Source: an uncultured Alphaproteobacteria bacterium (GTDB lineage Bacteria > Pseudomonadota > Alphaproteobacteria > CAWJRW01). From it: DNA of 64,000 nt. Every line of letters begins with the position of its first letter. The stretch's first letter is position 1. The DNA lies in contig CAWJRW010000006.1 of assembly GCA_963845385.1 (NCBI GenBank), positions 1,224,910 through 1,288,909 on the forward strand, given 5' to 3'. A model generated the notes under the pieces. That model had not been told where the DNA came from and did no database searches. It saw nothing but the letters and a program-made list of their open reading frames with translations. Shown in pieces: positions 49,823-53,868 of this stretch. The position numbers were made by a program, and so were the translations under genes.

Positions 49823-50038
49823 TTGTCCATCTATTCCAAAGTCACGTCCAAGGCGCAGACCGTGATCCCGAAGGAAATCCGCAAACGCCTCGGGCTCAAG
49901 CCCGGCGACATGATCCGCTACAAGGTGACGGGCAAGGCGGTCGAGATCGAGCGCGCGGGCGCGCCCGCCGACGATCCCTTCGCGAGCTTCACCGAATGGG
50001 CGAGCGATGCCGACGAAAAGGCGTACGGCAAGCTCTGA
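49823..50038 (+). CDS. AbrB/MazE/SpoVT-type antitoxin
   Basis: Intact 71-aa ORF with a TTG start. SKVTSKAQTVIPKEIRKRLGLKPGDMIRYKV is a swapped-hairpin motif. Its stop overlaps the downstream toxin frame. Confidence 0.8.
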   Translation: MSIYSKVTSKAQTVIPKEIRKRLGLKPGDMIRYKVTGKAVEIERAGAPADDPFASFTEWASDADEKAYGKL

Positions 50039-50386
50039 CAGTCGCCCGCTACGCGCCCTGGGACGTCGTCATCGTCCCGTTTCCCTATGCCGACAAGCTC
50101 GCCGAGAAGCGCCGCCCCGCCCTCGTCGTCTCCAAGCCCGCGCTCGAAAAGGACCACGGCCTCATCTGGCTCGCCATGATCACGAGCGCGGAGAACCGAG
50201 GCTGGACGGGCGATGTGCCCATCGCCGATCTTGCGCGCGCAGGACTGCCCGCGCCCTCGCTCGTCCGGCCTGCCAAGATCGCCACCGTCGAGAGCGACGC
50301 GCATCCTCATGCGCGTGGGCACGCTTTCCGCCGCCGAGCGGCGCGGCGTGGCTCAAGCGATGGGGCGCTATGCAGTCGCCGATTGA
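50035..50386 (+). CDS. PemK/MazF-family toxin (start codon unclear; one frame break ~50300)
   Basis: ...YAPWDVVIVPFPYADKLAEKRRPALVVSKP...IWLAMITSAENRGWTGDVPI...GLPAPSLVRPAKIATVESD, then ILMRVGTLSAAERRGVAQAMGRYAVAD* one frame over. Confidence 0.75.
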
Positions 50387-50505
50387 TTGCCGTTCAAGTG
50401 CCATTTCGATGAAGGAGCCTGCCTCAAAACGCGCGAAAAAATTCAACTAGCCTTGAACCCCATTTGCATTCGAACCTCTTTCAAGGGGTTTCTCTTGACC
50501 CCTGG

Positions 50506-50844
50506 TCATCCCTGGTAATTAAAATGTCTTCCTTCACCAAAGTCATAAAGCTGAATGCTCCGGCCATTGATAGAGCCTTGGAAGTGGCAGCCGGAGTTGT
50601 AATCGTAGCCCGAAAATGAGTTCCCATTAATTGCGAGGCTAATGTGTTGTCCCAACCCATGATGATAAAGGGTTGCGCCGTTACCAGAAACATGGGCTCC
50701 CGCCTGATGATCATAAAAATTGTCAGCGCTACCGCTCATGTTGATATGTCGGCCTTCCGAATAGCTGTAGATCGAGTTCGGTGAATGACCTGTGGCACGA
50801 GCCAATACAGCGAACGCAATTGCACGACGGGTCTCTTCGTTCAT
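50506..50844 (-). CDS. Hypothetical 112-aa protein with five degenerate ~18-aa 'Y-x4-G-x-H-(I/V/F)' repeats; low-GC
   Basis: ORF 50506..50856. The ATG at 50844 is preceded by GGAGGTGA. The repeats are SYSEGRHINMSG / FYDHQAGAHVSGNG / LYHHGLGQHISLAING / GYDYNSGCHFQGSING / LYDFGEGRHFNYQG. The gene lies 21 nt downstream of the LexA-like gene. Confidence 0.6.
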   Translation of the reverse strand: MNEETRRAIAFAVLARATGHSPNSIYSYSEGRHINMSGSADNFYDHQAGAHVSGNGATLYHHGLGQHISLAINGNSFSGYDYNSGCHFQGSINGRSIQLYDFGEGRHFNYQG

Positions 50845-50865
50845 GAAAACACTCACCTCCAGTGA

Positions 50866-51495
50866 TCATTCAAATGGCTTCGAGACTGTGGCAATGACTA
50901 CGCCCTGCACCATGAAATCGCGCTCTAAAATGATTGGTTGATGTCTTGTGTCGTTCGAATGCGGTGTGAGGACAACTTTATCGCCTCGGCGCCCGAACTT
51001 CTTGATGGTCGCGGCATCGTCAATAAGCGCAACGACGACCTCACCGTCTTGTGCGACCGGTTGTTGACGAACAAGCACGAGATCGCCGTCTTCAATACCC
51101 CCTAGATTCATCGAGTTCCCAACCGCACGAAGAAGGAAATAGCTCGCCCCGGGTCGTGCGAGCCGCTGAGAGACGGGAACCATGGCCTCGATGTTTTCCT
51201 CGGCGAGCATTGGCAACCCACAAGGCACTGCTCCCACGAGCGGAATTTCGATCGTCCGCTCCATATGCATCTCGTCGACAATGTCGCGGATAAGTCTAAG
51301 TTTCCCCGTCGGCGTGCGCGCGAGATAGCCCTTCTTGATGAGGCGCTCGATTAGCAGCGATGCCGATCGGCGGGATTTGAAGCCCACATGATCACAGATC
51401 GCTTGAAGAGTGGGCGCCCGCCCGCGGTACAGAATGCTGTCGCGGATGAGGCCTAAGCCCCTAATTTCATTTGGTTTATTCCCTATTGTAGCCAT
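50866..51495 (-). CDS. LexA-family (winged-helix + S24 peptidase) repressor paralogue; low-GC
   Basis: Intact 209-aa ORF. LexA-type wHTH (APTLQAICDHVGFKSRRSASLLIERLIKKGYL), linker IPLVGAVPCGLPMLAEENIE, Ser motif AVGNSMNLGGIEDGDLVLV and Lys in ATIKKF. Confidence 0.85.
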   Translation of the reverse strand: MATIGNKPNEIRGLGLIRDSILYRGRAPTLQAICDHVGFKSRRSASLLIERLIKKGYLARTPTGKLRLIRDIVDEMHMERTIEIPLVGAVPCGLPMLAEENIEAMVPVSQRLARPGASYFLLRAVGNSMNLGGIEDGDLVLVRQQPVAQDGEVVVALIDDAATIKKFGRRGDKVVLTPHSNDTRHQPIILERDFMVQGVVIATVSKPFE

Positions 51496-51497
51496 GG

Positions 51498-51510
51498 TAT
51501 CCAGAGGATA
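51498..51510. promoter_or_regulatory. Perfect 13-bp palindrome abutting the LexA-like start codon (candidate operator)
   Basis: TATCC-AGA-GGATA, 3 nt upstream of the ATG (51495). It sits in the 75-nt divergent spacer toward the small plus-strand ORF. Confidence 0.3.
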
Positions 51511-51569
51511 TACTTTGTCTACTAGCGGTGCAAGTCCGCGTCAGGACCAGCGGTCAGTGGAGACGATTC

Positions 51570-51716
51570 ATGGCTCGAAAGCAGAAGCCACCCGATTGGA
51601 ACAAGGCGCAGCCACACCATGTGGTGACTGGCAAGATCACCACCAGAAAGTTCGCCGATGCTCACCCAGAGAAAGTTGAGTGGGTGAGAGGGAAAAAGCC
51701 CAAGGAAAAGGGATAG
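51570..51716 (+). CDS. Small basic hypothetical protein (48 aa), divergent from the LexA-like gene
   Basis: MARKQKPPDWNKAQPHHVVTGKITTRKFADAHPEKVEWVRGKKPKEKG. GGAGA lies 7 nt upstream of the ATG. It is part of ORF 51528..51716. Confidence 0.35.
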   Translation: MARKQKPPDWNKAQPHHVVTGKITTRKFADAHPEKVEWVRGKKPKEKG

Positions 51717-51937
51717 CGGCGACTTTCGCAGCGCTGCCAAGGGTTAAGGCGCACGATTTGCCTGTATTCCTCACGGCCTGCGACGGGCCGTCCGAGTAGC
51801 GGCCGCTCGGAAAGCAGCCTCGCCTTTTCCATGATTTCGGCCGCAGCGATGGCCGCAAGGTTGGGATGATGCTCGTGGAGAAACAGGGCGAAACGGTCGA
51901 GGTCGGCCAGCGCCTCGGCCGACCATTCGAGCTTCAT
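51662..51937 (-). pseudogene. ParE/RelE-family toxin, divergent copy with aberrant 3' end
   Basis: MKLEWSAEALADLDRFALFLHEHHPNLAAIAAAEIMEKARLLSERPLLGRPVAGREEYRQIV..., but the expected ...Y..Y....I.ILRV.H tail is missing in all frames. ATGA overlap with the upstream antitoxin. Confidence 0.6.
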
Positions 51938-52209
51938 TGGTCGCGCCATGCGCGGAAAGCGGGCGTGCCCCAGCTTTCGAGACAGCGCACGACCTTTTCG
52001 TGGGGGACGGTCTTGCCGCCCGTCTCGACGGATTTCCAACGCCGATCAAGCTCGGCGACCGTTTCCGCCTCGGAAAATCCCGGCGCAGTCTCGGGCGCCA
52101 CAAGCTCAGCGAGGAGCTCGGAAACCGTGATCCCCCGCGCCGCCGCGCGCGCTTCGAGCGCGTCGGCGGTCGCGGCATCGATCTCGATCTTGCGCAGCTT
52201 GATGGTCAT
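51934..52209 (-). CDS. Ribbon-helix-helix antitoxin (ParD-like), divergent copy
   Basis: Intact 91-aa ORF. MTIKLRKIEIDAATADALEARAAARGITVSELLAEL... The N-terminal 35 aa are nearly identical to copies 2 and 3, while the C-terminal half is different. Confidence 0.75.
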   Translation of the reverse strand: MTIKLRKIEIDAATADALEARAAARGITVSELLAELVAPETAPGFSEAETVAELDRRWKSVETGGKTVPHEKVVRCLESWGTPAFRAWRDQ

Positions 52210-52404: not shown

Positions 52405-52689
52405 TCAGCGCGCTTCGCGGCCGTGCCAGACGCGGAGAATGACGATCGTGTCTCTCTGCGTCAGGTGCGCATAGCGCAACACGTAAGCCGACGCGCCGAA
52501 TGGCACGACGAGCTCGCGCACGCCGGGAATGCCGGATGGGCGGCCGCGAGCGGGAAAGATTTCCAGGGATTGTATGGCAGCGTCGAGAACATCGGCGATC
52601 TGTTGCGAAGCCGATGCGCTCTTGTCTTCAAGAAACGTGTGCAGCCGCTCGAGGTCCGCAGCGGCGGCCTGAGAGACGATCAGCCTCAC
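52405..52689 (-). CDS. parE: ParE/RelE-family toxin (tandem copy 2)
   Basis: A GTG start overlapping the antitoxin TGA gives (M)RLIVSQAAAADLERLHTFLEDK...FPARGRPSGIPGVRELVVPFGASAYVLRYAHLTQRDTIVILRVWHGREAR. Confidence 0.85.
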   Translation of the reverse strand: MRLIVSQAAAADLERLHTFLEDKSASASQQIADVLDAAIQSLEIFPARGRPSGIPGVRELVVPFGASAYVLRYAHLTQRDTIVILRVWHGREAR

Positions 52690-53006
52690 AGCTTGCGCGG
52701 CTTCGGCGGCGGAAGCTCGTTCGGCGTGCCCCAGCTTTGCATCCAGGCCTTGACCTCGTCCCAGGGCACGCCGAGCCCGTTGCGCTCGAACTCGGCAAGC
52801 CGTCGCGCATCCTCGGCGAGGATTTCGGGCGCCCACGGGCCGCGGCCCGCGGCACGCATGGTTTCGAGGTCGGGCGGCAGGGATTCTTCGGTTTGGGCAA
52901 TCTCGGCAAGAAGCTCGGCGACTGAAATTCCACGCGCCGCGGCGCGTGCTTCGAGCGCATCGGCCGTCGCCGCGTCGATCTCGATCTTGCGCAGCTTGAT
53001 GGTCAT
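52686..53006 (-). CDS. parD: Ribbon-helix-helix antitoxin (ParD-like; tandem copy 2)
   Basis: Intact 106-aa ORF, identical in protein sequence to 53523..53843. Confidence 0.8.
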   Translation of the reverse strand: MTIKLRKIEIDAATADALEARAAARGISVAELLAEIAQTEESLPPDLETMRAAGRGPWAPEILAEDARRLAEFERNGLGVPWDEVKAWMQSWGTPNELPPPKPRKL

Positions 53007-53104
53007 GCAAACAGCCTACGCCAGCGCGAGTTAATTGTCGAGAAAATGCCCGGGCTTGCGCAATGCCCTCGCCTCGGTCCGGCAAAGCTTTCGCGCCCCT
53101 CCCC

Positions 53105-53241
53105 TCACCCAATGCCCACCGCCTTCATGCGCTCCACCACGTGCTCGACAGTGCGGCGCACTTTGGGCGCGATGAGGCGGTTCGAGGGACAGACGGCGAA
53201 GGCGCCCCTTGTGGGTGTGGGGAAATCTTCGCGCATGCGCC
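53105..53241 (-). pseudogene. Fossil 3' end of a LysR-family regulator gene (second copy)
   Basis: ...ALRRMREDFPTPTRGAFAVCPSNRLIAPKVRRTVEHVVERMKAVGIG*. Diverged from the copy at 52268-52404. Confidence 0.6.
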
Positions 53242-53526
53242 TCAGCGCGCTTCGCGGCCGTGCCAGACGCGGAGAATGACGATCGTGTCTCTCTGCGTCA
53301 GGTGCGCATAGCGCAACACGTAAGCCGACGTGCCGAATGGCACGACGAGCTCGCGCACGCCGGGAATGCCGGATGGGCGGCCGGGATCGGGAAAGATTTC
53401 CAGGGATTGTATGGCAGCGTCGAGAACATCGGCGATCTGTTGCGAAGCCGATGCGCTCTTGTCTTCAAGAAACGTGTGCAGCCGCTCGAGGTCCGCAGCG
53501 GCGGCCTGAGAGACGATCAGCCTCAC
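53242..53526 (-). CDS. parE: ParE/RelE-family toxin (tandem copy 3)
   Basis: Same as copy 2 except for AR->DP and A->T substitutions. It lies exactly 837 bp from copy 2. Confidence 0.85.
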   Translation of the reverse strand: MRLIVSQAAAADLERLHTFLEDKSASASQQIADVLDAAIQSLEIFPDPGRPSGIPGVRELVVPFGTSAYVLRYAHLTQRDTIVILRVWHGREAR

Positions 53527-53843
53527 AGCTTGCGCGGCTTCGGCGGCGGAAGCTCGTTCGGCGTGCCCCAGCTTTGCATCCAGGCCTTGACCTCGTCCCA
53601 GGGCACGCCGAGCCCGTTGCGCTCGAACTCGGCAAGCCGTCGCGCATCCTCGGCGAGGATTTCGGGCGCCCACGGGCCGCGGCCCGCGGCACGCATGGTT
53701 TCGAGGTCGGGCGGCAGGGATTCTTCGGTTTGGGCAATCTCGGCAAGAAGCTCGGCGACTGAAATTCCACGCGCCGCGGCGCGTGCTTCGAGCGCATCGG
53801 CCGTCGCCGCGTCGATCTCGATCTTGCGCAGCTTGATGGTCAT
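53523..53843 (-). CDS. parD: Ribbon-helix-helix antitoxin (ParD-like; tandem copy 3)
   Basis: Intact 106-aa ORF. Its start lies 26 nt downstream of the rpoD stop. Confidence 0.8.
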   Translation of the reverse strand: MTIKLRKIEIDAATADALEARAAARGISVAELLAEIAQTEESLPPDLETMRAAGRGPWAPEILAEDARRLAEFERNGLGVPWDEVKAWMQSWGTPNELPPPKPRKL

Positions 53844-53868
53844 GCAAAAAGCCTACGCCAGCGCGTCC

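Follow-up and report, generated by a model that had tools for sequence, protein, structure and literature searches.

Organisation of the locus

The stretch analysed here, referred to as the window, comprises 64,000 nucleotides (nt) of contig CAWJRW010000006.1 from an uncultured alphaproteobacterium (assembly GCA_963845385.1, positions 1,224,910 to 1,288,909). At positions 50,506 to 50,844, on the minus strand, it encodes a protein of 112 amino acids (AA) with five degenerate repeats, which an initial annotation had singled out. The gene lies directly behind that of a LexA-type repressor. Together with a divergent open reading frame (ORF) for a basic protein of 48 AA, these two genes make up a cassette of low GC content, in which the repeat-protein gene comes last. 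The features of the cassette and of the gene fragment adjoining it are as follows.

50506..50844, minus strand: repeat-protein gene, 112 AA; ATG at 50844-50842, stop codon at 50508-50506; predicted helix at residues 3-18 and ten beta-strands
50845..50865, minus strand: spacer of 21 nt from the stop codon of the LexA-like gene to the ATG of the repeat-protein gene, with the Shine-Dalgarno sequence GGAGG at 50860-50856
50866..51495, minus strand: LexA-type repressor of 209 AA, self-cleaving by prediction, with a winged helix-turn-helix and an S24 peptidase domain
51497..51513, no strand: candidate operator, a GTAT-N9-ATAC palindrome that ends 2 nt before the repressor ATG and overlaps a -10-like TATATC
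51528-51533: -35-like TTGCAC
51570..51716, plus strand: divergent ORF for a very basic protein of 48 AA, with a GGAG ribosome-binding site (MARKQKPPDWNKAQPHHV, MARKQKPPDWNKAQPHHVVTGKITTRKFADAHPEKVEWVRGKKPKEKG)
about 50440..51735, no strand: imported low-GC three-gene cassette, right end estimated from the GC profile only
51752..52039, minus strand: remnant of a ParE/RelE-family toxin gene, with a ribbon-helix-helix (RHH) antitoxin at 51934-52209

The longest reading of the repeat-protein frame begins at a GTG at 50856. Since the homologues begin with M-[NK]-E-E, the ATG at 50844 is the correct start, and the ORF, its product and its start codon stand as initially annotated. Five copies of the motif Y[SDH][YHF]..G.H[IVF] are present in the protein, at residues 26, 44, 60, 80 and 100; no more than one was seen in any of 200,000 shuffles of the sequence. 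The pattern was fixed after the sequence had been seen, yet it is conserved family-wide as well, which supports the earlier description of five degenerate repeats. As had also been proposed, the protein has no transmembrane (TM) segment (maximum Kyte-Doolittle mean over 19 residues of 0.63) and cannot be assigned to a family, with no match in Pfam, NCBIfam, PADLOC or PHROGs.

The base composition sets the cassette apart from its surroundings. Between about 50400 and 51700, the GC content drops to 47-58% from about 65% on either side. Gene by gene, it is 48% for the 112-AA gene, 55% for the repressor gene and 54% for the 48-AA ORF, compared to 64% for the whole window. A second copy of the cassette was found in another sample on a contig of 1.1 kb (L156), which carries the divergent 48-AA ORF, the repressor gene, an identical gap of 21 nt with a similar GAGG motif and the first 53 codons of a family gene, where the contig ends. 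Nucleotide identity between the two copies is about 80%. At the protein level, identity amounts to 86% for the repressor (P0268, the closest relative of the window repressor), 81% over the 53 codons of the repeat protein and 73% for the 48-AA ORF. The ratios of nonsynonymous to synonymous substitutions (dN/dS) are 0.09, 0.11 and 0.13, respectively. Due to these low values, all three can be regarded as constrained coding genes. The homology begins 15-30 nt past the stop codon of the 48-AA ORF. On their left flanks, the two loci are unrelated. For the 48-AA protein, no match was found in Pfam or in plasmids; it may be a Cro-like protein or a second regulated gene of the cassette.

The proposed co-transcription of the repeat-protein gene with the repressor gene is likely. 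No terminator is predicted within the gap between them, and TTGCCA-18-AATGAT, the only promoter-like match by the spacer and inside the repressor gene's 3' end, is not preserved in L156. Downstream of the repeat-protein gene, the scan gave no intrinsic terminator, and a possible hairpin there folds no better than shuffled sequences.

The LexA-like repressor and its candidate operator

The gene upstream had been described as that of a cleavable LexA-type repressor, and its sequence bears this out. The protein scores 151.2 bits against TIGR00498 (cut-off 110.95), contains PF01726 (LexA_DNA_bind) and PF00717 (Peptidase_S24), and aligns over its full length to LexA of Escherichia coli (E 1e-26). 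A Cys-Gly pair takes the place of the Ala84-Gly85 cleavage site, and the equivalents of Ser119 and Lys156 are retained; in the alignment, VPC-GLP corresponds to VAA-GEP, GNSMN to GMSMK and TIKKF to TVKRL. Cys-Gly is the natural cleavage site of UmuD. Judged by these residues, the repressor is cleavage-competent. The window contains no second lexA, and the low GC content of the cassette suggests that the gene is an extra, imported lexA copy.

The GTAT-N9-ATAC palindrome occurs once in the 64-kb window, with an expectation of 0.01. Its arms and its position are shared with L156 and with a third locus (L157), while the spacers differ in all three, and each locus has a conserved TTGC(A/G)C 15 nt upstream of TATA(T/C). 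This arrangement is what an operator overlapping a promoter would look like; the repressor gene may thus be autoregulated, and its mRNA would possibly be nearly leaderless. The divergent gene begins about 75 nt from the repressor gene in the window, L156 and L157.

In L157 (4467-5624), the palindrome ends 1 nt before the ATG of a repressor orthologue with 69% identity, which is divergent to a ubiquitin-like operon of Multi_ubiq, ThiF (E1) and BubE; no family gene is present. Therefore, this LexA-like clade sits by different cargo in different genomes, which points to a portable switch of the LexA type that serves defence-like cargo. Relatives of the repressor were absent from IMG/VR and, at E<=1e-40, from plasmids.

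Insertion site and neighbouring genes

The toxin remnant next to the cassette resembles an intact paralogue, itself matching RelE/StbE (7etr_C), up to residue 62 (..RQIV), after which its frame runs into cassette DNA. The cassette was therefore inserted into the toxin gene and truncated it. The RHH antitoxin at 51934-52209 was left with the disabled toxin. No convincing direct or inverted repeats were found at the cassette ends, the region yielded neither an Rfam match nor a tRNA when scanned, and there are no prophage genes near the cassette.

The toxin-antitoxin (TA) modules that had been noted on both sides of the gene pair are indeed present and include MazE (49823-50038), RHH antitoxins and RelE/ParE toxins. 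Beside MazE, a MazF/PemK-like toxin ORF at about 50035-50386 (plus strand) appears to be split between two frames near 50295-50305, possibly through a frameshift or a sequencing error, which would possibly make it a pseudogene; this assignment comes from reading the sequence, and no sequence of the Protein Data Bank (PDB) matched it. On the other side, an RHH-antitoxin/ParE-RelE-toxin module appears to be duplicated in tandem with an offset of 837 bp (52405-53112 and 53242-53847, minus strand). The two antitoxins of 106 AA (52686-53006 and 53523-53843) have identical sequences, and a few residues distinguish the toxins. The interval from ldcA to rpoD as a whole looks like a spot where TA genes accumulate.

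Distribution and conservation of the family

The repeat protein belongs to a widespread and undescribed family for which Pfam, NCBIfam, PHROG and PADLOC hold no model. A word-indexed search recovered only six relatives of the 112-AA protein. When 1.84 billion cluster representatives were searched exhaustively with HMMER, 579 matched the family at E<=1e-3 and 254 still did so at E<=1e-10; nearly all have 108-121 AA. The 579 representatives stand for clusters at 50% identity and come from at least several phyla. For the genomic loci, a single-protein query returned only two genome loci, and a degenerate DNA pattern derived from the most conserved columns yielded 13 IMG/VR stretches and at least 120 metagenome stretches. 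Of 150 loci examined, 148 encode a family member, 126 of them at full length, and the loci cover 25 to 68% GC. Among the sources with a name are Bradyrhizobium and Corallococcus, besides a record labelled Arthrobacter citreus and a metagenome-assembled genome of the Acidobacteriaceae; where a source is named, the annotation reads 'hypothetical protein'.

Conservation was calculated from 333 non-redundant members. D45, D81 and D101 are 98% conserved, R6 95% and A10 93%, and the first aromatic residue of each repeat unit is Tyr or Phe. The positions occupied by His in the motif are His or Tyr across the family: residue 33 is His in 47% and Tyr in 33% of the members, residue 51 His in 67%, residue 67 His in 73%, residue 87 His in 89%, and residue 107 Tyr in 56% and His in 28%. 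A metal-binding His-repeat protein, as the regular His spacing had once suggested, is unlikely for this reason, since interchangeable positions provide no invariant ligands; the alternation of His and Tyr favours structural roles instead. The conserved Asp, Gly, Arg and aromatic residues likewise look structural. Ser accounts for 13%, Gly for 11%, Tyr for 9% and His for 5% of the family's composition, and the median isoelectric point is 6.4. Apparent N-terminal fusions in long homologues were discarded, as the extensions resemble mis-called starts or read-through.

Profile searches with 69 members gave no indication of a known function. None of them matched a component hidden Markov model (HMM) of PADLOC-DB 2.0 at E<=0.01, neither they nor the window protein matched SulA in Pfam, and the best PHROG match (phrog_5766, E 7e-4, three of the 69 members) is not significant. 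The family shows no catalytic constellation, and no TA or defence HMM was matched in Pfam, NCBIfam, PADLOC and PHROG. MORN, Rhs-YD and other named hairpin repeats are not among the 25 families listed of the 31 Pfam families that the 69 members matched at E<=1. In 50,697 GenBank phage genomes there was no family match, and 72,556 plasmids gave only four distant ones (23-27% identity in tblastn), all on sphingomonad replicons of 0.4-1.8 Mb.

Predicted structure

The AlphaFold2 model, which was built from an alignment of 69 sequences, has a mean predicted local distance difference test score (pLDDT) of 97.7 and a predicted template modelling score (pTM) of 0.91. Its helix (residues 3-18) precedes ten strands, which are paired as five hairpins. 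A profile search of PDB sequences returned nothing at E<=10, and Foldseek searches of the PDB and BFVD returned nothing at E<=1e-3, the best E-value being 0.02. The profile search and structure prediction suggested at the outset have thus produced a confidently predicted fold without a match to a characterised family and without a detectable structural neighbour among solved structures or viral predictions.

The best geometric matches of Foldseek, none of them significant, have template modelling scores of 0.45-0.47 and comprise the BT domains of 3-methylcrotonyl-CoA and propionyl-CoA carboxylases, in which an antiparallel barrel surrounds a helix, a de novo designed barrel and the barrels of LolA, fatty acid-binding proteins (FABP) and lipocalins. 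As these analogues are barrels and the N-terminal helix (RRAIAFAVLARA) is Ala-rich and almost wholly apolar, the model suggests a five-hairpin up-and-down sheet or barrel wrapped round this helix. The beta-solenoid scaffold that had been offered as an alternative does not fit the model, which is an up-and-down hairpin meander of ten antiparallel strands with an N-terminal helix and has up-and-down barrels as its best analogues. With its confidently predicted, unmatched fold, the family lends itself well to structure determination and to definition at the level of a domain of unknown function (DUF).

Genomic neighbourhoods of family genes

No dominant partner gene emerged when 103 neighbours upstream and 98 downstream were scanned with Pfam. 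Upstream, class II ribonucleotide reductase was found at five loci, MarR at three, and TIR and AAA_15/OLD at two each; reverse transcriptase, transposases, DUF4411, SRAP, SWI2/SNF2 and others occurred at single loci. Downstream, DUF3800 was found at three loci and NT5C, YaaC, a phage portal protein and a type I restriction S subunit at two each, with nSTAND3, an integrase, UvrD, a terminase and others at single loci. In one locus (L068, 685-1047), a small repeat protein matching the Pfam family 'Bflower' (4-fold beta flower) lies directly downstream of the family gene; a relation between Bflower and the family was rejected at an hhalign probability of 0.2.

The initial annotation had proposed a two-gene module of repressor and effector and a survey of its co-occurrence in other genomes. 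In this survey, every ORF of the family loci was searched with the window repressor; 77 of the full-length loci extend 800 nt or more upstream of the family gene. An S24/LexA-like gene was found upstream in two of these informative loci (L122 and L120), L156 having been found separately. In L122, the LexA-like gene is adjacent to the family gene and its product is 32% identical to the window repressor; in L120, the distance is about 385 nt and the contig ends within the LexA-like gene. The family proteins of both loci belong to another subfamily, with 38-45% identity to the window protein, and their nearest relatives have other upstream genes, namely an OLD-family nuclease and a tyrosine recombinase. 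Therefore, the LexA-type link recurs and is nonetheless sporadic across the family. The module holds as a local arrangement that recurs in L156 and, with LexA-like genes upstream, in L122 and L120. It does not hold as a conserved two-gene system, since the pairing is not family-defining and the 69%-identical repressor orthologue of L157 has no family gene beside it.

The commonest upstream neighbour is NrdJ, with eight loci (L001/L002, L015-L017, L077, L109 and L087) from about four to five lineages. In Bradyrhizobium and other alphaproteobacterial contigs, the family gene usually begins 3-54 nt after nrdJ. This proximity, together with NT5C downstream at two loci and a nearby HD-domain gene at one, could point to an accessory factor of class II ribonucleotide reductase or of nucleotide metabolism. 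However, the family genes at these loci have a GC content of 0.42-0.51 and a GC content at third codon positions (GC3) of 0.33-0.62, whereas the 1.5 kb upstream, which bear nrdJ, have 0.53-0.64. The DNA downstream of the family gene is usually low in GC as well, and the next gene varies among the loci checked, including SLFN/AlbA_2 with DUF3644, a CapP-like M78 peptidase and an AbiTii-like gene. These contrasts and the variable, defence-like downstream genes make the family gene look like the first gene of an island inserted 3' of nrdJ, so that the link to nrdJ is positional and a functional link was rejected. The 3' end of nrdJ looks like an insertion hotspot for islands in alphaproteobacteria. 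As more than 90% of the family loci also have no ribonucleotide reductase neighbour, a role as an accessory factor of this enzyme is extremely improbable.

A further, distant member, about 24% identical, is located on the Novosphingobium capsulatum plasmid NZ_CP140001.1 (L158, 153472-153885), the one of the four sphingomonad replicons that was inspected; only 7 nt separate it from the preceding iolE, and it closes an inositol-catabolism operon. Members behind housekeeping genes suggest that the repeat protein is tolerated when expressed there, which disfavours constitutive toxicity.

These data bear on the earlier idea of a repressor-gated toxin or abortive-infection effector, which the LexA-like protein would silence or neutralise until phage attack or DNA damage releases it. 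The idea gains from the conservation of the three-gene cassette under purifying selection, the LexA-like genes upstream of two distant family members, the setting among TA modules, the frequent defence-like neighbours of family genes and the established theme of damage-responsive regulators of immune operons (CapH/CapP, CapW, CapK/CapS). It loses from the rarity of the pairing, from the many homologues that are solitary or have no conserved partner and from those that lie behind nrdJ or iolE and are probably co-expressed with them. In addition, no PADLOC, Pfam, TA or toxin match exists among the 69 members, the conserved residues appear to be structural, and neither catalytic residues nor a membrane segment are apparent. 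An antitoxin role of the LexA-like protein is also not borne out. In an operon of lexA and a downstream gene, the repressor would control the transcription of that gene along with its own, and this corresponds to SOS or cI-rex logic rather than to antitoxin logic. Toxicity of the repeat protein is thus unsupported, and the toxin reading, although to be taken seriously, is unlikely.

Many other neighbours are typical of defence or mobility. PADLOC models match neighbour pairs as RmrA, type I S, mad5, Old/AriA, type IIG and CapP, and further family neighbours are OLD/AriA-like, CapP-like M78, AbiTii-like and SLFN/AlbA_2 genes, integrases and transposases; CapP-like M78 peptidases adjoin two family genes. 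On long contigs, the family gene is flanked by IS630-type transposases in Corallococcus or forms part of an island that also carries an integrase, a MerR-helicase and an HD protein. The GC content of the family gene is below that of the flanks in 84% of the loci. In soil metagenomes, one clade shows a conserved, native-looking operon unlike the island loci (L005-L008, L111, L092, L136, L050) that consists of MarR, a glycine-zipper membrane protein of 106 AA, the family gene and a SecDF_P1_head-like gene; the GC3 of its family gene is about 0.76-0.84 where measured.

Islands with integrases, transposases and defence genes could also carry an anti-defence protein of a mobile element, such as an inhibitor of restriction or of an immune system. 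A small, near-neutral to acidic, non-enzymatic-looking protein would suit this function, thirteen IMG/VR contigs carry a family gene, and a phage portal gene is next downstream in two. On the other side, the phage genomes contain no match and the plasmids only the four distant ones, and the PHROG match falls short of significance. An anti-defence function is therefore very unlikely.

Within 250 nt upstream of family genes, five matches to GAAC-N7-GAAC boxes were found (0.163 per kb compared to 0.026 per kb). This excess comes from four to five loci, two of which are related, and two of the matches overlap ribosome-binding sites. Cheo, gamma, cyanobacterial and Xanthomonas-type SOS boxes were not found upstream of family genes. 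The enrichment, mild as it is, would agree with an SOS-induced modulator that binds FtsZ, RecA or LexA and thereby delays division or tunes the SOS response. The gene order, which is that of lexA-sulA in Pseudomonas, the repressor that looks autoregulated and cleavable, the small, soluble and non-enzymatic-looking product and the single neighbours SRAP and UvrD fit this explanation as well. On the other hand, the protein shows no similarity to the SulA, DinI and RecX families, most members are unlinked to LexA, and the few loci behind the box excess limit its weight. An SOS modulator of this kind is considered decidedly unlikely.

Proposed role

The explanation that we favour, at roughly even confidence, is that the repeat protein is a soluble, cytoplasmic, non-enzymatic binding protein that travels as island cargo and is here wired to DNA damage through the repressor. 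Its five beta-hairpin repeats of the form [YF]-D-[YHF]-x2-[GS]-x-[HY]-hydrophobic would wrap the Ala-rich N-terminal helix as a sheet or barrel. Family members would travel mostly as single-gene cargo of islands that were acquired horizontally and abound in genes for defence, TA systems and mobility. In the cassette, the repressor would bind GTAT-N9-ATAC over its own promoter until RecA* (activated RecA) stimulates its self-cleavage through the Cys-Gly site and the Ser/Lys dyad. Since the repressor retains these residues, DNA damage or phage-induced single-stranded DNA would be expected to derepress the operon and to raise the level of the repeat protein. The latter would then bind a partner through its Tyr/Ser/Gly/His-rich surface and play an accessory part in stress or immunity, instead of acting through catalysis or damage to membranes.

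Several points weigh against this explanation. No experiment or homology gives the family a function. The association with islands and defence genes is qualitative and comes without a background rate, many contigs are short, and the ORF calls of neighbours are crude. Some clades look native rather than island-borne, such as the operon of MarR, the 106-AA protein, the family gene and SecDF_P1_head, in which GC3 reaches 0.84. The lack of matches in phage genomes and the near-absence from plasmids are a further limitation, due to which the notion of mobile cargo has to be restricted to chromosomal islands. The geometry of a helix inside a barrel is derived from secondary structure and weak Foldseek analogues. 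Finally, damage induction is predicted from sequence features, and a logic like that of lambda CI, with expression in the uninduced state, would be an alternative.

A more far-reaching version of the favoured explanation would make the repeat protein the effector or sensor of an undescribed, DNA-damage-gated stress or immunity function of a single protein. It would have a new five-hairpin helix-in-barrel fold, and the LexA-like clade with the GTAT-N9-ATAC operator would be a portable damage switch that islands couple to varied cargo, namely to the repeat protein here and to the ubiquitin-like operon in L157. This version is fairly unlikely. Overall, both the protein family and its predicted fold are undescribed, and their setting at this locus is a novel variation on an established regulatory theme. 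The locus is a solid lead rather than a surprise, and the idea of a repressor plus toxin is weak.

Comparison with known systems

The only named sequence family with a recurrent resemblance is the uncharacterised DUF5334 (PF17268), of which no mention was found in the literature searched. It was matched by 34 of the 69 members, all below the gathering score (best 22.2 compared to 25 bits) and over 20-40 of the 71 model positions, so that one or two hairpin units are spanned. These weak matches suggest a similar [YF]-D-Y...G repeat unit; nevertheless, the model is only partially covered and the window protein itself has no match at E<=1. In terms of structure, the BT domain of 3-methylcrotonyl-CoA and propionyl-CoA carboxylases, LolA, FABP/CRBP and the lipocalins share antiparallel meander sheets round a helix or ligand (TMq 0.30-0.47). 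They differ in that E-values are at best 0.02, identity is about 10%, the root-mean-square deviation is 6-11 A and none of them has five sequence repeats. Thus, by the model, they are at most analogues of the repeat protein and not homologues.

Type II TA systems resemble the cassette as compact pairs of small genes, here among genuine TA loci. However, the pairing is found in two of 77 loci, the repeat protein has no toxin-family match, and the upstream protein is a full LexA rather than a labile antitoxin.

The gene order is closer to that of lexA-sulA in Pseudomonas and cI-rexA-rexB in lambda, where a cargo gene follows a self-cleaving repressor. Common to all is a small gene just downstream of an S24 repressor gene, presumably co-transcribed with it, and a divergent small gene across a control region of about 75 nt. 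In contrast, the repeat protein is unrelated to SulA or RexAB, and the cassette has no prophage surroundings.

CapH/CapP, CapW/BrxR and CapK/CapS are DNA-damage-responsive regulators of immune operons. The cassette shares with them, by prediction, a damage-sensing repressor beside variable cargo. It differs in its sensor, which is of the LexA/S24 type instead of an XRE and M78 pair, a WYL protein or a kinase pair, and in its cargo, which is one small protein. With this, the cassette would add a LexA/S24-type sensor to the known DNA-damage-responsive switches beside island and defence cargo, and it offers a concrete candidate operator.

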